Source: Patescibacteria group bacterium (GTDB lineage: Bacteria > Patescibacteriota > Microgenomatia > PFEM01 > JBHPGO01). Taken from it: 64,000 nucleotides of DNA. The position numbers and the translations under genes were made by a program. Position 1 is the first letter of the stretch, and each line of letters starts with the position of its first letter. Location of the stretch: positions 1,656 to 65,655 of the forward strand of contig JBHPGO010000001.1 of assembly GCA_042570465.1 (NCBI GenBank), given 5' to 3'. The notes beneath the pieces are model-generated. The model saw only the letters and a program-made list of their open reading frames with translations, did no database searches and was not told the origin of the DNA. Shown here piece after piece: positions 19,571-63,916 of this stretch.

Positions 19571-19614
19571 ACATATAAACTATAGCACAAAACTTTTCCT
19601 ATGTGTTTCCACCC

Positions 19615-19670
19615 CAGTTTTTCCACCCCATTTTCCACCCCAGGGGTGACTTAGGTTGACACCCCTGGTA
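19615..19670. repeat. left inverted repeat (ccaccccaggggtgacttaggttgacacccctgg)
   Basis: Reverse complement of 20391–20450. Confidence 0.6.
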
Positions 19671-19848: not shown

Positions 19849-20298
19849 ATGAAAAGCAAAATCGTAGGGCTACTTTTTATTGCTACCGGTGCCTTAATGC
19901 TGGGTACTTTTATCCTTTCAATGCTAATGTTTTTTGGTGATGGGGAAGACAGGGCATTAATAGGTGGTGTTTTTTCTCTTATTCTTGGAATTTATAGTAT
20001 AGTCCTAGGGTCTGCGATAAGGGGAAGGAAAAAATGGGCTTGGTATGCAGGAATAATTACTTTATCATTGGCACTCGTAGGAAATGTAATAACATTATTT
20101 GTTAACTTTTCTTCCTTTTTGATTTTACCTATTGTGTTGGAAGTTGTTTCAATTTATGCGATGTATGCAGATAAAAGCCAATTCTTAACCGAATCAGAAA
20201 CAACCTCAAGTACTGTGATGCCCGCTACTGAACCACAGACAGAGATTATCAATATCCAACCAAGTCCACCGCAACCAATTAATCAAGATAGTCAATAG
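19849..20298 (+). CDS. small multi-TM membrane protein (149 aa)
   Basis: Three hydrophobic helices; lies between the inverted repeats. Confidence 0.4.
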   Translation: MKSKIVGLLFIATGALMLGTFILSMLMFFGDGEDRALIGGVFSLILGIYSIVLGSAIRGRKKWAWYAGIITLSLALVGNVITLFVNFSSFLILPIVLEVVSIYAMYADKSQFLTESETTSSTVMPATEPQTEIINIQPSPPQPINQDSQ

Positions 20299-20390
20299 CT
20301 TCAAGATCCCCACAAGTCATCCACTCCTGGTGTAACTTAGGTCTTTCTCTCAAAAAGTCAATCAAATTTAACCAGAAAACTGTAGATTCC

Positions 20391-20450
20391 CAGGGGTGTC
20401 AACCTAAGTCACCCCTGGGGTGGATTTCGTGGGGTGGATTTCGCATCGCT
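20391..20450. repeat. right inverted repeat (ccaggggtgtcaacctaagtcacccctgg + ggggtggatttcg x2)
   Basis: Reverse complement of 19615–19670. Confidence 0.6.
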
Positions 20451-20583
20451 TTTGAGCGGGATGCGGGATTCGGAGGGTCCGAAACTTCTTGTTTAGTTTG
20501 AATCTTCCCAGGGAGATCTCCAATTGTCGTCTTTAGTTTGAAAGTTAGGTGGAGTTTGGGTTCGAATCTATGCATCCCTTTTG
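20442..20583 (-). pseudogene. partial copy of tRNA-Gly(TCC) 3' end (T-loop TTCG + GACCCTCC + GAATCCCGCATCCCGCTCA) with a 130-bp unit
   Basis: gcatcgcttttgagcgggatgcgggattcggagggtccgaaac repeats the tRNA 3' terminus at 20572–20600. Confidence 0.6.
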
Positions 20584-20654
20584 AGCGGGATGCGGGATTC
20601 GAACCCGCGTCTTCACCTTGGAAGGGTGATGTTGAGCCTCTCAACTAATCCCGC
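20584..20654 (-). tRNA. tRNA-Gly(TCC)
   Basis: Hand-folded cloverleaf: acceptor GCGGGAT/ATCCCGC, anticodon loop CTTCCAA, T-arm GCGGG-TTCGAAT-CCCGC. Confidence 0.75.
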
Positions 20655-20726: not shown

Positions 20727-20889
20727 CGTCTTCACCTTGCCCGACAAAAGGTTCGAGACTTCGACCGCATTTAGTCGGGTCCGCCAAATTGCGTTCTGCA
20801 GTACAGAACCTTTTGGCGTGAGAAGGGTGATGTTGAGCCACCCCGCCGAAAAGCTTCGCATTTTTGCGGGCAGGTCAACTAATCCTGCT
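20727..20889 (-). pseudogene. 5'-portion copy of tRNA-Gly(TCC) interrupted by a ~34-nt insert in the D-loop and a ~85-nt insert in the anticodon loop
   Basis: The sequence matches the tRNA 5' half (including the ctgattttt flank) once the insertions are removed. Confidence 0.55.
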
Positions 20890-20956
20890 GATTTTTCAAA
20901 TATTAGAATTTATATTCAAGCCAGATTCGCAGTAATTTAATACTATTTTATCAAAA

Positions 20957-21724
20957 TTGACCTCTTTGATCAATGACTGTATAGTTAGGGAAATGGCTAA
21001 GAAAATCAACGTTATCAAGCACGGTGGCTCTTCTGAACTATACGATCGGCAAAAAGTTTTGCAGTCAATCCTTCGTTCTCAAGTCAACGATCATCAAGCT
21101 CAGGAAATTTTATCCAGAGTTGAAAAAAGGCTTCATGATGGGATCAGCACAAAGAGTCTTTACCAAATCGTTAACCGGGAAATTGTTCGTCAGGATCTTC
21201 CCCACTGCTCTGATCTTTACCGACTCAGAGAAGCAGTGGCGACGATGGATTCAATTGATTTTGAAAAATTTGTCAAAGAAATTTTGACCAAAGAGGGCTT
21301 TGAAGCTCAGTGGAATTTGATATTAAACGGTTTATGCATTGACCATCAGATCGATGTCGTGGCTAAAAATAAGAATGGCCAGGTTTATTACGTGGAGGTT
21401 AAACACCACCGCCATTACCACCGTGATACAGGCTTGGGAACCGTAATTGAGCTTTGGGGTCGCTACAAAGACTTGATGGATGGCTACCATAAAAGTCGTC
21501 AACCTTATGATTTTGCTTCGGCATGGCTGATCACCAACACCAAGTTTTCCCGACACGCAAAGAAGTTTTCGGCATGCAAAAACTTAAGATTAACCGGCTG
21601 GCATTATTTTTTAAAGGAAAAAGGACAGGAAAGTAAGAATGGTTTGGAAAAAGAGTTTGAAAGCTTAGGGGTGGACCAGGTTAGCCTCCTGGTGAAAAAA
21701 GTAATTGAGGGAAGTTTATCGTAA
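20957..21724 (+). CDS. ATP-cone domain fused to Mrr-like (PD-(D/E)xK) restriction endonuclease domain
   Basis: N-terminal INVIKHGGSSELYDRQKVLQSI..STKSLYQIVNREI is ATP-cone-like. The central FEKFVKEILTKEGFEA..IDHQIDVVAKNKNGQVYYVEVKH matches the Mrr_cat D...D/E-x-K core. Confidence 0.5.
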   Translation: MTSLINDCIVREMAKKINVIKHGGSSELYDRQKVLQSILRSQVNDHQAQEILSRVEKRLHDGISTKSLYQIVNREIVRQDLPHCSDLYRLREAVATMDSIDFEKFVKEILTKEGFEAQWNLILNGLCIDHQIDVVAKNKNGQVYYVEVKHHRHYHRDTGLGTVIELWGRYKDLMDGYHKSRQPYDFASAWLITNTKFSRHAKKFSACKNLRLTGWHYFLKEKGQESKNGLEKEFESLGVDQVSLLVKKVIEGSLS

Positions 21725-41848: not shown

Positions 41849-42121
41849 CTATTTTCTTGGATTATCGTCTTTGGTTGTGCCGTACCAGGTATACAGGTCA
41901 GCAGCATGCTCATCAATTTTCCTCAATTCTTCGACAATCTTCATTCGAACAATGAATGAGGAAACAACGGGTTGATCTCTTTCTTCAATCCAAGAAGCAA
42001 CAGTTTCTGCCAATGAATCCGCTTGCTCTGGAGCCAAACCAGCTGATTGTGCGACTTTAGAGACTTTCTTGGGATCAAAGTCTTCGACTACCCCATCTCT
42101 TCTAATGACTTTAATATTCAT
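41849..42121 (-). CDS. stand-alone ATP-cone domain protein (~90 aa)
   Basis: MNIKVIRRDGVVEDFDPKKVSKVAQSAG. The ORF-track extension to 42259 overlaps tRNA-Val and is rejected. Confidence 0.5.
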   Translation of the reverse strand: MNIKVIRRDGVVEDFDPKKVSKVAQSAGLAPEQADSLAETVASWIEERDQPVVSSFIVRMKIVEELRKIDEHAADLYTWYGTTKDDNPRK

Positions 42122-42146
42122 ATTTATTGTTTTAATAAGCCTCCAG

Positions 42147-42220
42147 TGGGTCCACCAGGAGTCGAACCTGGAACCTTTGCGATGTAAACGCAACGCTCTA
42201 GCCAGTTGAGCTATGGACCC
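42147..42220 (-). tRNA. tRNA-Val(TAC)
   Basis: Acceptor GGGTCCA/TGGACCC, anticodon stem TTGCG/CGCAA with loop TTTACAT, T-arm CCAGG-TTCGACT-CCTGG. Confidence 0.8.
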
Positions 42221-42346
42221 AGACCACTTGATTTTATCTAAGAACCAGTGTTTTTGCAACTATTGCCATTATTCATCGTTGCTCATGATTGGCACCTGGC
42301 TTTAGTTTTTTAATGATTGGAATTTAGCGTATTTTTGGAAAATTCC

Positions 42347-57629: not shown

Positions 57630-59252
57630 TTATTCAAGTAAGTTGCGTCCGGTCATTAAGGTTGGTTTTTCAATTCCCAGTAAACCTAATATCGTTGGGG
57701 CGACATCGGCTAAAATTCCTCGCGATAAAACCCTGTTTCCGACTATTGCCTTGCCAACAATAATCAGGGGAACTGCGTTGGTTGAATGTTTGGTGTCAAT
57801 TTCACCGGTTTCAAGGTCGATCATTTCCTCAGCATTACCATGATCAGCCGTAACCACCGCCGCCCCATCAATACTTAATACTATTTTTATCAGTTTCTCT
57901 AGACAATTGTCAACTACCTCACAAGCCTTGCTTCCAGCCTCTAAAACTCCGGTGTGACCGACCATGTCAGGGTTGGCAAAATTAATAACAAAAAAATCAA
58001 AGATATTTAGCCTTAACTGCTTAATGACTGTTTCGGTTACTCCGTGGGCCGACATTTCTGGCTTTAAGTCATAGGTAGCAACACTTGGAGAAGGAATTTC
58101 CATCCTAACTTCGCCCGGAAAAACATCCTCCCTTTGACCATTGAAATAATAGGTCACGAATCTTTCTTTTTCTGTCTCGGCGATACGAAATTGCCTAATC
58201 CCCCTTTCTGACAAAGCCCTTGCCAAAGGGTATTTGACCTTTTCCGGTGGAAAAGCAGACTGAGCCGGTAAGCCTGGCTCATACTCTGTCATTGTCACAA
58301 AGATCAAGTCTTCGACAATTTTTTCCCGTTTAAAAGTAGCTCTCCCTGCTGGGGCTTCATAAACTTTCAAGCCGTACCTTTCAGCGTAGGGGTCAAAGGC
58401 AGCCTTGCTGATTTTGACATTTTCAAAATCAGGCAAAACAAAGGCCTTAGTTATCTGACGAGGGCGGTCGATCCGGTAGTTAAAAAAGATGACAGCGTCA
58501 TGGTCTTCAATCAAGCCCTCAGGATCAATTAAAGTTGGCTCAATAAATTCATCCGTTTGCTTGGCTTGATAAGCCAAATTAATTCCGTCGGAAGCTGAAT
58601 TAGCCCGGTTGCCCTTCCCCTGGACCAATAACTCATAAGCTTTTTTGGTTCTTTCCCAACGATAATCTCTGTCCATCGCAAAGTAGCGACCACAAATAGT
58701 CGAGATTTTGCCCAAGCCAAGTTTTCTTGAAACTTGCTCTACTTGAGTCACAAATGCTCGTGCTGAGGTTGGAGAAGAATCTCTTCCGTCAGTAAAAAGA
58801 TGTAAATAGACTTTTTTTAAACCAGCCGCACTGGCGAGTTTCATTAAGGCAAAAAGATGGTCCATGCTGGAGTGAACCCCACCTCCACCAACCAAGCCCA
58901 TTAGGTGAAGCTTAGACTGGTTTCGAGTGGCGTGATCAGTGGCCATCTTAAAAGCTGGAATTTGAAAAAAACTCTCATCGGCGATAGCCATATCAATTCT
59001 GGGCAAATCTTGAAAAACAATCTGGCCCGCTCCAAGATTCAAATGGCCTGTTTCTGAATTTCCGTCTTCACCACGAGGCAGACCAACGGCTTCACCAGAA
59101 GCCACCAGTTGAGTGTGAGGAAAGTTTGACCAAAGCCGATTAAAATAAGGCGTTTTTGCTTTAGTCACCGCATTGCCAGGACCATCAGGAGCAATTCCCC
59201 ATCCGTCAAGAACGATGAGAACAACAGGTTTAAAATTTTGGCCTTTAATCAT
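57630..59252 (-). CDS. gpmI: 2,3-bisphosphoglycerate-independent phosphoglycerate mutase
   Basis: N-terminal VLIVLDGWG; 540 aa; 4-nt overlap with eno. Confidence 0.85.
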   Translation of the reverse strand: MIKGQNFKPVVLIVLDGWGIAPDGPGNAVTKAKTPYFNRLWSNFPHTQLVASGEAVGLPRGEDGNSETGHLNLGAGQIVFQDLPRIDMAIADESFFQIPAFKMATDHATRNQSKLHLMGLVGGGGVHSSMDHLFALMKLASAAGLKKVYLHLFTDGRDSSPTSARAFVTQVEQVSRKLGLGKISTICGRYFAMDRDYRWERTKKAYELLVQGKGNRANSASDGINLAYQAKQTDEFIEPTLIDPEGLIEDHDAVIFFNYRIDRPRQITKAFVLPDFENVKISKAAFDPYAERYGLKVYEAPAGRATFKREKIVEDLIFVTMTEYEPGLPAQSAFPPEKVKYPLARALSERGIRQFRIAETEKERFVTYYFNGQREDVFPGEVRMEIPSPSVATYDLKPEMSAHGVTETVIKQLRLNIFDFFVINFANPDMVGHTGVLEAGSKACEVVDNCLEKLIKIVLSIDGAAVVTADHGNAEEMIDLETGEIDTKHSTNAVPLIIVGKAIVGNRVLSRGILADVAPTILGLLGIEKPTLMTGRNLLE

Positions 59253-60526
59253 GTCGCCGGAACTCCTTTTTCTGCCAGCTCGAGCTCGCTTTCAATTTTT
59301 AACAGTCGGTTATATTTGCTGACCCTTTCTCCTCGAGCCGGAGCGCCAAACTTAACAAACCCGGCCCCAGTCCCAACTGCAAAATCAGCGATAAAATCGT
59401 CATTTGTTTCTCCACTGCGATGGGAAACTACGGTTTGAAACCTGTTTTCATGAGAAACTCTGATCACTTCAGCCGCCTCAGAAATTGTTCCAATTTGATT
59501 TGGCTTCACTAAAACACCGCTGCAAGCCTTTTCTTTAATCGCCTTTAAAATCCTTGTTTTATTGGTGGCCAGCAAATCATCACCAACAACAATCGTCTTT
59601 GGCAAGTCCTTAGTAATTCCCTTCCAACCTTTCCAGTCATCTTCATGAAAAGGATCCTCAAGAAGCATCAGGTGATATTGGCTGTTAATGTCCCGATAGT
59701 ATTCCACCAGCTCACCGGTATCCATCGGCATTGTTTTGTCTCGAATTTTGTATTTTCCGCCTTCATAAAACTGTGAAGCAGCCACATCTAAACCCAAGAA
59801 AACATCTTCCTCAAGATTGTAACCAGACTCTCCGATTGCCTCTTTTAAGACTTCCAAGGCATCAACATTAGTAAAAAGATGCGGGGCAAAGCCACCTTCG
59901 TCACCAACGCTCTGATCAGCTCCATGACGCATTAAGACTTTTTTAAGCGTTTGGTAGATTTCTTCCGCCACCCTTAAAGAAACTGGAAACTCCATTTCAC
60001 TTTTGGGAATAACATGAAACTCTTGAAAATTTAAATTCCCAGCTCCGTGCTTGCCGCCATTAATCAGATTAAAAGTGGCCGTCGGGATTTTAAGATTTTT
60101 TTTACCGGGAAAAAAAGTATCCCTCACATGAAGATAAATTGGAATTTTTTTAGCGGCCGCTCCGGCCTTACAAACCGCTTGAGAAACTGAAAGAATGGCG
60201 TTTGCCCCTAGTTTTGATTTATTCTCAGTTCCATCAAGAGTCACCAAAATCTCATCAATTCTCATTTGCTGAATCGGGTCAAGACCAATCACTTTTTTGG
60301 CCAAAACCTGATTAACGTTGGCGACTGCTCCTAAAACTCCCATTCCACCGTAGCGTTTTGGATCATTGTCTCTGAGCTCAACAGCTTCATAATTGCCTAA
60401 AGAAGCTCCGGCGGGAACAGAGGCCTTAACCACCAATTCATTATCAAGAATTATCTGAGTTTCGATGGTTGGGTTGCCTCTGGAGTCTAGAATTTCCCTG
60501 GCTTTAAGGAGTTTAATTTTTGCCAC
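59249..60526 (-). CDS. eno: enolase
   Basis: SHRSGETNDDFIADFAVG; 425 aa. Confidence 0.9.
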   Translation of the reverse strand: MAKIKLLKAREILDSRGNPTIETQIILDNELVVKASVPAGASLGNYEAVELRDNDPKRYGGMGVLGAVANVNQVLAKKVIGLDPIQQMRIDEILVTLDGTENKSKLGANAILSVSQAVCKAGAAAKKIPIYLHVRDTFFPGKKNLKIPTATFNLINGGKHGAGNLNFQEFHVIPKSEMEFPVSLRVAEEIYQTLKKVLMRHGADQSVGDEGGFAPHLFTNVDALEVLKEAIGESGYNLEEDVFLGLDVAASQFYEGGKYKIRDKTMPMDTGELVEYYRDINSQYHLMLLEDPFHEDDWKGWKGITKDLPKTIVVGDDLLATNKTRILKAIKEKACSGVLVKPNQIGTISEAAEVIRVSHENRFQTVVSHRSGETNDDFIADFAVGTGAGFVKFGAPARGERVSKYNRLLKIESELELAEKGVPAT

Positions 60527-62882
60527 GTTTAGTCACCAATCTTTTTTCTACTTGATAAACTAGTCCTCTGGTCCGGTCAATAGCGTCCGGGTTAACTGAC
60601 AGACTAGTCACCCCCCACTTAACTAGATTCTCAACCAGGTCGGGATATGTCGAAGCAGCTTGACCACAGATAGAGGCGGTAACTTTAGCCCGATGACAAA
60701 CTTCAATCGTCCTTTTTATGGCCCACAAAACAGCCGGGTTTTGCTCATCAAATCCCTTGGCTAGCTCTTCATTGTCACGATCAATTCCCAAAGTAAGCAT
60801 CGTCAAATCATTTGAGCCGATAGAAACCCCATCAAGGCCAACTTTAATAAAGTCTTCTAGTAAAATAACGTTAGCTGGAATTTCAACCATTAACCAAAGT
60901 TTAAAACTTGGACTTCTGAACAAGCCTCGAGAACCAATAATTTTTTTAACCTCTTTTAGTTCTAAAGGGGTTCGGCAAAAGGGAACCATCATCCAAAGAT
61001 TTTTTAATCCCATTTTATTTCTGACAACCTTAATCGCCTCTAATTCAAGCTCAAAAGTTTTCGGATCAGAAAGATAACGAAAAGCACCCCGAAAACCAAT
61101 AAATGGGTTAGACTCAACTGGTTCAAAAGCCTTACCTCCAACTAAATTCCGATACTCGTTAGTCTTAAAGTCGCTGCTGCGATAGATGACTGGCCGGGGA
61201 GAAAAATGTTGACAAAAGGTCGCCATCCCTTCGGCTAATTTATTGATATACTCTTTGCTTTTTTTGTCTTTGATGGCTTTTTTAGGGTGAACTCCAATTT
61301 CTGCCATCATAAACTCGGCTCTTAGCAAGCCAACTCCCTCAACATTCATTTTACTGACTTCTAAAGCTCTTTCAGGTTCTCCCAAATTAACGTAAATTTT
61401 TGTGGCTGTTTTAATTGAAGACAAAACAGAGTGCGGTTTATTTTTTTCAGATAAACCTCTGATTTCTTTGCTTGGCCTGGCCTTTATTCCTCCTTTTAGA
61501 ATTTCTCCTGAGCTTCCATTAACAGTCACAATCTGCCCTTTATCGAGGGCCTTGGTGGCACTCTCAGTTCCAACAACACAAGGAATCCCCAGCTCGCGAC
61601 TGACAATCGCCGCGTGGGAAGTTTGGCCGCCCTTGTCTGTAATAATCGCCATTGCTTTTTTCATTGCCGGAACAAAGTCAGGGGTTGTCATCGAAGTTAC
61701 CAAAATATCACCTTTATTAATTTTGTAAATCTCTTTAGCTGACTTGATGATTTTAACCGGACCACTGACAATTCCCGGACTGGCGGCGGCGCCGGTTAGT
61801 AAAGTTGGTTTTCCCCTCAGCTGTTTTTCAAGACCGGTTTCTTTTGCTTTTTTAGTTTCCTTAATCGTTGTCACCGGCCTGGTTTGTAAAATCCAAAGCT
61901 TACCATCTGCCAGGGCCCATTCAATGTCTTGGGGGAAGAAATAATGGCGATGGATTTTTTTGCCCAATGTTGCCAGCTCCTTGATTTGATGATTAGTTAA
62001 TTTTCTTTTAACTTGGAATTTGTGAGAAACCTTTGTTTCTTTGTTCAAAGTTTCAGCTTTGACTAATTGAATTAATTGTTTGGCGACATAAATATCAAGA
62101 ATTTTCAAATCGCTTTTTCTGACCAGGTAGCGATCAGGAGTAACCTTTCCCTGAACAATATACTCGCCCAAACCATAAATTGCCTCGATAATCAGCGATT
62201 TTTTGTCGTTGGTTATCGGGTCAATCGTAAACATCACCCCTGAAACATCAGAAGAAACCATCTTTTGAATCGGGACTGCCATGCCAACCTTCATGTGCTT
62301 AAAGCCTTTTTCTTCACGATAAAATATCGCTCTGGCCTCAAAAAGAGAAGCCCAGCAGTCTCTAACCGTCTGAACGACATTGGCTTCTCCTTTGACATTC
62401 AAGTAAGTTTCTTGCTGACCGGCAAATGAGGCTCCAGGCAAATCTTCGGCCGTGGCTGAAGAACGAACCGCAACCAATACCTGTTTAAAATGAGAGCCAA
62501 GCTGAAGATAGTTCTTAATAATATCTTGAGAAATATCTTTTGGAATCGGACTTTTCCTGATGATTTTTTTAATTTTCTCTGAGGCATGAGCAAAAGTCTC
62601 GGGTCGGTCCTTGTCAAGGTGTTTTAAATGATCTTTAATGACCCCCTTCAAATTATTGCTTTTAATAAACTGATAATATGCATGACTGGTGACGACAAAA
62701 CCGTCCGGTACAGGGATTTTAAAAGAAAACATTTCTCCCAAATTGGCTCCTTTGCCCCCAACTTGACCGCCATCATCTTTATCAATTTCTTTAAACCAAA
62801 GAATGTTCTTGCTTTTCTTTTGTTGCTTCATTTTAAAAACCTTTTTTAACCTTTGAGCGCCTTTTTTAAATAAATAATCCAA
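60513..62882 (-). CDS. ppsA: phosphoenolpyruvate synthase (PEP-utilising enzyme; PPDK is a less likely alternative)
   Basis: Phosphohistidine domain GGQTSHAAIVSRELGIPCVVG; 789 aa, typical of PpsA. Confidence 0.75.
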   Translation of the reverse strand: MDYLFKKGAQRLKKVFKMKQQKKSKNILWFKEIDKDDGGQVGGKGANLGEMFSFKIPVPDGFVVTSHAYYQFIKSNNLKGVIKDHLKHLDKDRPETFAHASEKIKKIIRKSPIPKDISQDIIKNYLQLGSHFKQVLVAVRSSATAEDLPGASFAGQQETYLNVKGEANVVQTVRDCWASLFEARAIFYREEKGFKHMKVGMAVPIQKMVSSDVSGVMFTIDPITNDKKSLIIEAIYGLGEYIVQGKVTPDRYLVRKSDLKILDIYVAKQLIQLVKAETLNKETKVSHKFQVKRKLTNHQIKELATLGKKIHRHYFFPQDIEWALADGKLWILQTRPVTTIKETKKAKETGLEKQLRGKPTLLTGAAASPGIVSGPVKIIKSAKEIYKINKGDILVTSMTTPDFVPAMKKAMAIITDKGGQTSHAAIVSRELGIPCVVGTESATKALDKGQIVTVNGSSGEILKGGIKARPSKEIRGLSEKNKPHSVLSSIKTATKIYVNLGEPERALEVSKMNVEGVGLLRAEFMMAEIGVHPKKAIKDKKSKEYINKLAEGMATFCQHFSPRPVIYRSSDFKTNEYRNLVGGKAFEPVESNPFIGFRGAFRYLSDPKTFELELEAIKVVRNKMGLKNLWMMVPFCRTPLELKEVKKIIGSRGLFRSPSFKLWLMVEIPANVILLEDFIKVGLDGVSIGSNDLTMLTLGIDRDNEELAKGFDEQNPAVLWAIKRTIEVCHRAKVTASICGQAASTYPDLVENLVKWGVTSLSVNPDAIDRTRGLVYQVEKRLVTKRGKN

Positions 62883-63916
62883 TCTTCAGGACCAGGGTCT
62901 TCGTGGTTGGCAATTGAAAGATAGGCGCTGGTAAAACCACCAAGGTTGACTAACTCAAGGACTTGAGCTAGCTTTGATTCAGAGCGCATTTCATAAGCGA
63001 GGTTTTTAATCTTAAATTGATTAAGAACTTTTTGAGTTGCCTGGTACCTTTTTTGATTTCTTGGGTGGTAGTCAGAAGAAACGATCATCAAGTAAACCAT
63101 GTGCTTAATGAACATTTCAGGCTTTCCAAAGGCCTCCACTAGGTGGTGGTTCATCTCAGGCAGATCATAAAAATGAGCGTTGGTATGGGCAATCTCATTT
63201 AATTGAGTTCTGAAAGTAAAAGTGGCGCCGTTAAGGTGTTGGCTGGAGATTAAAAATGGCACCAAGCCTTTGAATTCAAGGGCAAGTTTTTTGGCTGGAT
63301 TTTCAACTGTTGGTGCCTGAGGAAAAAATTTCATTTGGACCGCCTCAAATTCAGCCAGGGCCTTATTTAATAAGTCAGTAGACAAGTTAATCAAGTTCAA
63401 GTGAGAAAAAACTGCTAGCAGCGACCCAAGAGAATAGCCAACAGCGGTTTTGGGGTAACCCAAAGGGTTGTACCTAGGGTGATAGATAAAACCATCTTGT
63501 TTGTGACTTTCAATCATTTGACCGATTTTACCGTCAGTCGTGATCGCAAACGATTTGGCTTTTTTTTGTTTGGCTTGCTCCAGGCAGCTTAAAGTTTCTT
63601 CGGTGTTGCCTGAGTAGCTCGAAATGATCAGGAAAGTATCATGATCAATGTGGTTTGGCAAGTCGTATTCGGTGATTATTTGAAAAGGAAACTTTAATTC
63701 ATCTTGATAAAGAAATCTAACAATTCTCCCGGCTAAAGCCGAACCACCCATACCTGCCAAAGCAATTTTTTTAAACCCGGTCATTCTTTGAAGCACGGCC
63801 GCCTTATTAAAGTCATTAAAAACATTTCTAATTTGCTTAGGAAGGGCTTCGATCGAGCCAAGAGCGTCAGATTTGTCGATCTTTTTGAGGTTATTGATAT
63901 CGTCGAGCAGATTCAT
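62846..63916 (-). CDS. bifunctional phosphoglucose/phosphomannose isomerase (SIS domain, archaeal-type)
   Basis: GMGGSALAGRI SIS motif; 356 aa. Confidence 0.65.
   Translation of the reverse strand: MNLLDDINNLKKIDKSDALGSIEALPKQIRNVFNDFNKAAVLQRMTGFKKIALAGMGGSALAGRIVRFLYQDELKFPFQIITEYDLPNHIDHDTFLIISSYSGNTEETLSCLEQAKQKKAKSFAITTDGKIGQMIESHKQDGFIYHPRYNPLGYPKTAVGYSLGSLLAVFSHLNLINLSTDLLNKALAEFEAVQMKFFPQAPTVENPAKKLALEFKGLVPFLISSQHLNGATFTFRTQLNEIAHTNAHFYDLPEMNHHLVEAFGKPEMFIKHMVYLMIVSSDYHPRNQKRYQATQKVLNQFKIKNLAYEMRSESKLAQVLELVNLGGFTSAYLSIANHEDPGPEDWIIYLKKALKG

Follow-up and report, generated by a model that had tools for sequence, protein, structure and literature searches.

A predicted ATP-cone-bearing nuclease family of Patescibacteria and DPANN archaea with a possible role in nucleic-acid turnover and nucleotide salvage

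We describe a gene of a Patescibacteria group bacterium that encodes an N-terminal ATP-cone joined to an Mrr-like PD-(D/E)xK nuclease domain, and the large family to which it belongs. The gene lies at 20993..21724 (+) in a 64,000-nucleotide stretch of DNA (hereafter the window; GenBank assembly GCA_042570465.1, contig JBHPGO010000001.1, positions 1,656 to 65,655 of the forward strand), and all coordinates below are those of the window. The analysis establishes the two domains, the intact catalytic and ligand residues (the canonical Arg of the cone excepted), the size and distribution of the family and its gene linkage. That an apparently active nuclease carries an apparently ligand-competent cone is well founded in sequence and structure. 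Most members occur in DPANN archaea and in the candidate phyla radiation (CPR)/Patescibacteria. It is tentatively hypothesized, with somewhat less than even confidence, to be an adenine-nucleotide-gated nuclease that serves nucleic-acid turnover and nucleotide salvage.

A preliminary description of this DNA had placed the gene at the open reading frame (ORF) 20957..21724 (+). This ORF is present, reads as 255 aa from a TTG codon and contains both of the motifs quoted in that description, but its 5' end probably lies too far upstream. Translation most likely begins at ATG 20993, which gives a protein of 243 aa with the stop codon TAA at 21722-21724, the same as NCBI MFC1726918.1, 'restriction endonuclease [Patescibacteria group bacterium]', recorded on a contig of 68.7 kb. 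The TTG at 20957, which an ORF finder takes as the start, falls in the -35 hexamer of a promoter-like site at 20957..20985 (+), recognized by consensus match alone (10 of 12 positions) and composed of TTGACC (20957-20962), a 17-nt spacer and TATAGT (20980-20985), the last of which ends 7 nt before the ATG. Because the TTG belongs to this hexamer and the promoter-like site would fire at about the ATG, the gene was taken as 20993-21724. Transcription would possibly start at or beside ATG 20993, making the mRNA leaderless or near-leaderless; with so short a leader, there is too little space upstream of the ATG for a Shine-Dalgarno sequence at normal spacing. Residue numbers refer to the 243-aa form unless the 255-aa ORF is named. 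NCBIfam held no family-level model for the protein and gave noise-level matches only (11-15 bits).

The N-terminal ATP-cone of the preliminary description was borne out. The Pfam ATP-cone model (PF03477) matches residues 17-81 of the 255-aa ORF with 31.1 bits against a cut-off of 25.8, and a precomputed match to the same model is found in 27 of 31 relatives. Pfam, an AlphaFold2 model and structural matches to the cones of NrdR and ribonucleotide reductases (RNRs) place the domain at residues 5-83 (21005..21241, +). In the AlphaFold2 model, generated with 30 relatives as input (mean predicted local distance difference test score [pLDDT] 88.6, predicted TM-score 0.79), the cone comprises a beta-hairpin (strands 6-8 and 14-16) and helices 19-27, 33-45, 53-66 and 70-83, with a pLDDT of 82-96 across residues 1-90. 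Foldseek matched this half of the protein to NrdR cones (9FVR, 9GEX and 7P37) and RNR cones of the PDB with a probability of 1.00. A cone-only profile run against PDB sequences found the right families (NrdR and RNR) at weak E-values of 0.03-0.08, with a designed-repeat false positive ranked top, so that Pfam and fold are the basis of the cone assignment.

The inner nucleotide site of S. coelicolor NrdR consists of V48, K50, R51, E56 and K62, and mutants in V48, K50, E56 or K62 bind nucleotides less well and oligomerize differently (PMC9110341). Four of these five positions are present in the window protein, as V7 (21011), K9 (21017), E15 (21035) and K21 (21053), with a spacing identical to that of V48, K50, E56 and K62; the position aligned to R51, an Arg in canonical cones, is H10 (21020-21022). 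Conservation was read from a profile alignment of 180 diverse family members, to which all conservation figures given here refer. Within the cone, K9 is conserved at 99%, G12 and K21 at 97%, T53 at 93% and Y76 at 92%; position 79 of the last cone helix is K or R in 99% (R79 in the window protein), and Y57 is likewise conserved. The Arg of the canonical K-R-D-G motif is not retained family-wide, its place being taken by Ala in 45% and then by Tyr, Ser, His and Gln. The cone of the window protein is thus apparently ligand-competent as judged from its residues, and, because the canonical Arg is missing from the family, the phosphate-binding mode and the preferred ligand could differ, e.g. in favor of a mono- or diphosphate.

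The remainder of the protein is an Mrr-like PD-(D/E)xK nuclease domain, as had been proposed. Mrr_cat (PF04471) matches residues 95-212 of the 255-aa ORF with 44.4 bits (cut-off 21; E 2.2e-11), and the cone stands in place of the usual Mrr winged-helix N-terminus, there being no Mrr_N match in the protein. Pfam, a profile match to 1Y88, Foldseek and conservation agree on a nuclease domain of the AF1548 type at 21239..21592 (+). The AlphaFold2 model, a check that had been suggested earlier, contains the cone followed by a PD-(D/E)xK fold with its catalytic triad retained; the alpha/beta core spans residues 87-201 in the order alpha-beta-beta-beta-alpha-beta (helix 87-100, strands 104-112, 117-125 and 131-137, helix 148-166, strand 174-181). 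All components of the active site are present, namely the D...(D/E)xK triad D121 (21353), E135 (21395) and K137 (21401) and the Glu of the upstream helix, E91 (21263); other key residues are H118 (21344), H139 (21407), D160 (21470), N182 (21536) and K184 (21542). Across the family, E91, D121, K137 and D160 are conserved at 100%, E135 and N182 at 99%, and H118 and H139 at 97%. On these grounds the nuclease domain is apparently active. The protein ends in a helical tail (residues 218-243; 21644..21721, +; helices 218-225 and 227-242; pLDDT 38-77) at the position where most relatives carry an AF1548-like_C domain (PF22357) of ~56 aa. That domain is present in longer relatives (P0024, P0028, P0031, P0043 and P0060); the Microgenomates-type subfamily of the window is without it, and the window protein gave no PF22357 match at E <= 1.

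A cone joined to a DNA-binding domain is the logic of NrdR, to whose cones Foldseek aligns this one, and the protein could accordingly be an NrdR-like transcription factor in which the nuclease fold acts as a sequence-specific DNA binder and the cone controls repression of nucleotide-metabolism genes. Several PD-(D/E)xK domains are indeed inactive binders, and one relative (P0007) gives a weak Pfam match to NA-iREase1. We consider such a factor highly improbable. The residues E91, D121, E135 and K137 are 99-100% conserved, and a binding-only module is therefore not expected; in addition, the protein has no Zn-ribbon, and no RNR genes are recurrent beside the family.

The nearest solved structure is that of AF1548 from Archaeoglobus fulgidus (PDB 1Y88), which has a homologous nuclease domain and is the only PDB sequence matched by the family profile (E 1.3e-37). 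It was also the best Foldseek match of the nuclease half (E 1e-10, 34% identity, root-mean-square deviation 1.4 A over 141 columns), followed by EndoMS/NucS (5GKE and 2VLD) and MspJI, with FokI matched as well. AF1548 and the window protein have the same D...ExK triad and the same TNTKF motif, but AF1548 has no ATP-cone (the profile alignment begins at its residue 22), and it has a C-terminal AF1548-like_C domain that the window protein does not. As a structural-genomics 'protein of unknown function' (Mrr_cat plus AF1548-like_C in Pfam) it offers no functional anchor. The literature yielded just a 2007 Global Ocean Sampling prediction, in which AF1548 is a restriction endonuclease by prediction only, with D38, E51 and K53 as catalytic residues (PMC1821046).

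With RNR alpha subunits and NrdR, the window protein shares its N-terminal sensor fold and, in the case of NrdR, the V/K/E/K spacing. In RNR alpha subunits, as here, the cone is N-terminal to the effector that it presumably controls; the effector is a nuclease in the window protein, in contrast to a reductase in RNR and a Zn-ribbon DNA binder in NrdR. NrdR carries its Zn-ribbon ahead of the cone, whereas the cone of the window protein begins at residue 5, and the canonical R51 of NrdR is not kept in the cone/nuclease family. Both RNRs and NrdR work through a nucleotide-driven change of oligomeric state, and by analogy the same would be expected of the window protein.

The family is large, in answer to the earlier suggestion that related fusions be surveyed. 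A word-indexed search returned 31 relatives, and an exhaustive profile search of 50%-identity cluster representatives returned 2099 at E <= 1e-3 and 511 at E <= 1e-30, which puts the number of clusters with this architecture at 511 or more. Nearly all of the best 150 representatives align end to end and have a typical length of 270-290 aa, the extra length being the AF1548-like_C domain. In one-genome-per-species data, relatives are encoded in at least 474 species. The best 80 species matches comprise 35 archaeal ones (Aenigmatarchaeota, Micrarchaeota, Woese-, Nano-, Alti-, Undin- and Iainarchaeota, together with Geoglobus, Thermofilaceae, Bathyarchaeia and Methanomassiliicoccus) and 45 bacterial ones, mostly Patescibacteria but also Nitrospirota, WOR-3, Bacteroidota and Actinomycetota. 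Databases name these proteins 'restriction endonuclease' or, in RefSeq, 'ATP cone domain-containing protein'. The architecture is therefore already catalogued, with hundreds of database copies, and is not rare; it is functionally uncharacterized, and, in line with what the preliminary description had supposed, no experimental study of an ATP-cone/Mrr-type nuclease fusion was found in the literature. One member (P0116, 523 aa) carries a C-terminal serine beta-lactamase/penicillin-binding-protein-like domain (PF00144), and in a Paceibacterota locus (L073:658-1497) a break of the gene into two ORFs points to a frameshift or pseudogene.

Gene neighborhoods were compared in 84 fetched loci and the window by calling ORFs, clustering them by BLAST and annotating recurrent clusters with Pfam. 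The ORF caller and the clustering were home-made and crude, and three loci have no called target where tblastn finds the gene. In archaeal clusters of Aenigmatarchaeota and related groups, the family gene is the last co-directional gene. It follows RuBisCO, an AMP/nucleoside phosphorylase and ApgM in two loci (L004 and L008); an IF-2B (ribose-1,5-bisphosphate [R15P]-isomerase-like) gene, a phosphorylase and, in part, ApgM in four others (L005, L006, L011 and, from Bathyarchaeia, L065); and GAPDH, PGK, a further gene and iPGM in L002 and L003. On plasmids of Criblamydia sequanensis and Pontibacter actiniarum DSM 19842, RefSeq annotation shows the family gene as the first of a four-gene operon, followed by genes for a metallo-beta-lactamase-fold hydrolase, a thymidine-phosphorylase-family protein and ribose-phosphate pyrophosphokinase (phosphoribosyl pyrophosphate [PRPP] synthetase), with stop/start overlaps between genes in Criblamydia. 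The family proteins themselves are full-length members of ~280 aa (WP_176454803 in Criblamydia and WP_237151220 in Pontibacter). The hydrolase is a beta-CASP/RMMBL nuclease. The plasmid phosphorylase is 39% identical to the neighboring phosphorylase of Bathyarchaeia, and its PDB match 4GA5 (E 1e-104) far exceeds those to true thymidine/pyrimidine phosphorylases, none of which is better than 1e-38; 4GA5 was deposited under the title 'putative thymidine phosphorylase' and is, we assume, the AMP phosphorylase of Thermococcus. Altogether, 8 of the 86 loci (L004, L005, L006, L008, L011, L065, L085 and L086), drawn from four deep lineages, include a phosphorylase within the sequence fetched.

In Aenigmatarchaeota and Bathyarchaeia, the family genes thus stand in the same co-directional clusters as the AMP-phosphorylase/pentose-bisphosphate pathway (DeoA, R15P isomerase and form III RuBisCO), which as described includes no nuclease component. 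In the literature, CPR and DPANN organisms are believed to rely on the scavenging of nucleic acids and on this AMP-phosphorylase/RuBisCO pathway (PMC7414124, PMC5113843), and it has been proposed that they feed nucleic acids into it through unassigned 'encoded nucleases' (PMC7414124). With the family abundant in CPR and DPANN and operonic with the pathway in several genomes, it is a concrete, testable candidate for the feeder nuclease.

The neighborhoods in Patescibacteria are of a different composition. In ~30 of these genomes, the gene occupies a common co-directional array that runs from genes for LeuRS, a sigma-like protein, an uncharacterized protein, an MltG-like protein and MnmA to the family gene, and continues with a Cas4-like PDDEXK_1 nuclease or MgtC, a uracil-DNA glycosylase (UDG) or MGMT-like protein, and AlaRS. 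MnmA is immediately upstream in 18 loci; the flanks contain the Cas4-like nuclease in 11 loci, a family-4-type UDG in 14 and an MGMT-like gene in 7, and the family gene often stands directly ahead of the second nuclease (PDDEXK_1). Among close relatives of the window gene, the surroundings are RecO, a class II tRNA synthetase, Maf and MraZ-RsmH; Pth, MGMT-like, SDR and Trx-TrxR genes; or FtsW and IleRS on either side. Four archaeal loci (L004:5929-6873(-), L005, L008 and L011) have at +1, on the opposite strand, a gene for a PP-loop protein of the TtuA/NcsA-like tRNA-thiolation type, and its CPR counterpart at -1 is MnmA, the bacterial tRNA 2-thiouridylase. Two distinct PP-loop tRNA-thiolation enzymes beside the family in two domains of life may be a coincidence or a hint of an RNA/tRNA link.

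This CPR setting invites the reading that the protein is a DNA-repair or recombination nuclease resembling EndoMS/NucS, in which the cone would license cuts when deoxynucleoside triphosphates (dNTPs) are available for repair synthesis. EndoMS/NucS are the next structural matches after AF1548, the flanks hold the Cas4-like, UDG and MGMT-like genes just counted, L081 has RecO three genes upstream, L082 has an MGMT-like gene at -2, and three loci have RecR close by; most members also end in the small AF1548-like_C domain, which we take to be helix-hairpin-helix-like. We nevertheless regard a repair function as unlikely. There is no sequence-level relation to NucS, with only 1Y88 passing the PDB sequence search, and the window protein is without the C-terminal domain. 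The repair-gene neighbors occur within one superphylum, among tRNA-synthetase genes, and may reflect synteny, and the operons with AMP phosphorylase, RuBisCO and the beta-CASP nuclease would be left unexplained.

The preliminary description had instead cast the protein as a defense effector, that is, a nuclease of the type IV-like or abortive-infection kind, encoded by itself, which the cone would hold inactive until a phage perturbs the ATP/dATP pool. Type IV restriction enzymes and many defense effectors have Mrr_cat as their catalytic domain; the window protein, in which it scores above the Pfam threshold, shares it with E. coli Mrr, and the gene, like those of type IV enzymes, is solitary and has no methyltransferase. 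The best PADLOC match of the window protein is the Mrr-like nuclease end of ZorD (24.4 bits, E 1.4e-6), at the domain level only, and one of 146 immediate neighbors of more than 80 relatives strongly matches a MADS component. The gene adjoins tRNA remnants and repeats. Its gene tree is patchy, in that Aenigmatarchaeota proteins are 44% identical to the window protein and those of most other CPR ~31-35%, which suggests horizontal transfer. Against this, the 146 neighbors include no recurrent DNA methyltransferase family (Pfam) and no recurrent defense family (PADLOC, which returned cross-hits of QueC on MnmA and Cas4 on PDDEXK_1 and ~4 singletons); a survey for methyltransferases and defense islands had been called for, and what recurs is nucleotide-catabolism, housekeeping and DNA-repair genes. 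A pattern scan of viral contigs gave 29 candidates and no confirmed relative, and BFVD gave single-domain matches only (TMq <= 0.45). The ~30 CPR genomes that hold the gene in the same housekeeping array are unlike the rule for defense genes, which turn over fast, and the metabolic-enzyme operons come from four deep lineages. In the window, too, the gene has housekeeping neighbors, as it does in close relatives, and there is no GC anomaly. Classical Mrr has the winged-helix Mrr_N that is missing here, and the nearest relative is AF1548 rather than Mrr; unlike Mrr and type IV enzymes, the cone/nuclease family shows conserved metabolic and housekeeping linkage and no defense context. A role in defense is consequently improbable, and the claim was not upheld. 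A restriction-modification pair was rejected, since no methyltransferase lies near the window gene or recurs near its relatives.

The nucleotide-salvage mechanism is inferred in all its parts: that the cone binds a nucleotide and which one, that the oligomeric state is switched and in which direction activity is regulated, whether DNA or RNA is cut, and what the enzyme does for the cell. The protein would act by itself as a soluble endonuclease, a member of the AF1548 clade within the Mrr-like PD-(D/E)xK enzymes, and the adenine-nucleotide pool would control it through its N-terminal ATP-cone. The cone would bind ATP or dATP or, because the canonical Arg is missing, possibly a lower phosphate in the inner site V7/K9/E15/K21. 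Its occupancy would change the oligomeric state or the packing of cone and nuclease, as in RNRs and NrdR, and the D121/E135/K137 site would be switched between an inactive and a cleavage-competent assembly. The most likely sense would be negative feedback, with the nuclease off when the replenished pool is full. Its role would be chromosomal housekeeping rather than restriction or defense, namely the gated breakdown of DNA (or RNA) upstream of the second nuclease and of the AMP-phosphorylase/pentose-bisphosphate pathway where these are present, which would suit CPR and DPANN organisms living on scavenged nucleotides. The window copy shows no informative linkage, and its role is therefore taken from the family.

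Several observations weigh against this salvage hypothesis. The window gene, flanked by tRNA-Gly on one side and the gene for a bactofilin-like membrane protein on the other, has no salvage neighbor; tblastn found no AMP phosphorylase, RuBisCO or IF-2B gene in the window. The phosphorylase linkage is confined to the eight loci listed above, the Aenigmatarchaeota clusters among them may descend from a common ancestor, and a single transfer may account for both plasmid operons. In CPR, the large gene block may have been inherited as synteny and carry no functional meaning, and a role in DNA repair suits its UDG, MGMT and Cas4-like genes no less well. The products of Mrr-type enzymes are double-strand breaks rather than mononucleotides. 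That the family cone binds nucleotides is a prediction from its residues; the canonical Arg is missing, and the E15 position is Glu in 71% of members and Gln in 16%. As for defense, solitary type IV enzymes need no methyltransferase, so that the absence of one does not exclude such a role, and PADLOC covers the defense systems of CPR and DPANN poorly.

Work on ATP-cones has dealt almost wholly with RNRs and NrdR, where they are the master switch of dNTP synthesis. If a nuclease is governed in the same way, this logic would extend from the synthesis of deoxynucleotides to the release of nucleotides from polymers, and the nuclease would be a new effector type for a well-studied sensor, although the architecture itself is not new to databases. 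The family may thus represent a third class of ATP-cone-controlled effector after RNRs and NrdR, a gated endonuclease that makes entry into nucleic-acid catabolism and salvage a regulated step and, with a partner exonuclease, feeds AMP phosphorylase, R15P isomerase and RuBisCO or PRPP formation; this broader claim is more speculative, and we consider it possible but less likely than not. If true, it would explain how CPR and DPANN organisms with tiny genomes can harbor a DNase inside the cell and subsist on the nucleic acids that they scavenge, yet not digest themselves. No report of a family-level link to nucleotide salvage was found in the searchable literature. The small size of the proteins makes testing practical, as does the availability of one carrier, Pontibacter actiniarum DSM 19842, from a culture collection. 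Meanwhile, the label 'restriction endonuclease' on hundreds of genes probably misrepresents the defense repertoire of their carriers.

A second ATP-cone protein is encoded in the window, as the preliminary description had reported, on the minus strand (41849-42121; 90 aa; Pfam 34.4 bits) and beside tRNA-Val (42146-42220); the strand is a correction. A mechanical ORF call at 41849-42259 overlaps this tRNA, and the real start is therefore presumably an internal ATG. The motif of this stand-alone cone, V-I-R-R-D-G...E...K, keeps the Arg and is more canonical than that of the nuclease's cone. The two proteins were considered as paralogues, but BLASTP gave no alignment between them, and the stand-alone cone is therefore not a recent paralogue.

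Upstream of the nuclease gene in the window are genes for a dockerin-bearing protein of 949 aa and a membrane protein of 149 aa, and tRNA-Gly(TCC); downstream are genes for the bactofilin-like membrane protein and coiled-coil proteins. Glycosidases are also among the neighbors, and farther off are an RND pump, SHMT, FolD, TIM, a DEAD-box helicase and, ~36 kb from the nuclease gene, a lower-glycolysis cluster (57630-63916, -) that encodes a PGI-like SIS protein, a PEP synthase/PPDK-type enzyme, enolase and iPGM. The window contains nine tRNA genes. No methyltransferase, integrase or defense gene occurs in the window neighborhood of the gene, and neither the window ORFs scanned nor tblastn showed any RNR, NrdR, AMP phosphorylase, RuBisCO or IF-2B-like gene. 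The GC content is 0.40 in the gene and 0.35-0.47 around it. The gene had been placed in an island, a framing that does not fit neighbors consisting of membrane proteins, glycosidases and core metabolism at an unremarkable GC content; the idea of a foreign island was not supported.

The tRNA-Gly(TCC) locus had been called duplicated, and part of this stands. There is a single intact gene (20583-20654, -), and the remainder consists of degenerate fragments rather than a clean duplication. A 30-nt copy (97%) of the tRNA-Gly 3' end and flank lies 129 nt from the tRNA (20443-20472), and a broken second tRNA-Gly-like copy with insertions between its pieces lies at ~20727-20902 (-), comprising cgtcttcacctt (~20727-20745), an exact 18-nt piece of the D-arm and anticodon stem (20822-20839) and a 5'-end piece (89%; 20875-20902). 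An intron-bearing tRNA was rejected for this second stretch, where ARAGORN with introns made no call and at a relaxed threshold gave only an implausible tRNA-Trp; Rfam found no additional tRNA there. The pieces look like a decayed tandem duplication or old integration scars.

Nearby, a perfect 35-nt inverted repeat (19634-19668 and 20390-20424) brackets a 721-nt segment whose sole ORF is that of the 149-aa membrane protein (19849-20298; weak DUF7144 match). Its arms are flanked by mirrored tandem 14-mers (19603-19642 and 20416-20443), and each arm is itself a 9-bp hairpin, a motif that occurs exactly twice in the window against zero expected. The segment could be invertible, a miniature mobile element or a pair of terminators.

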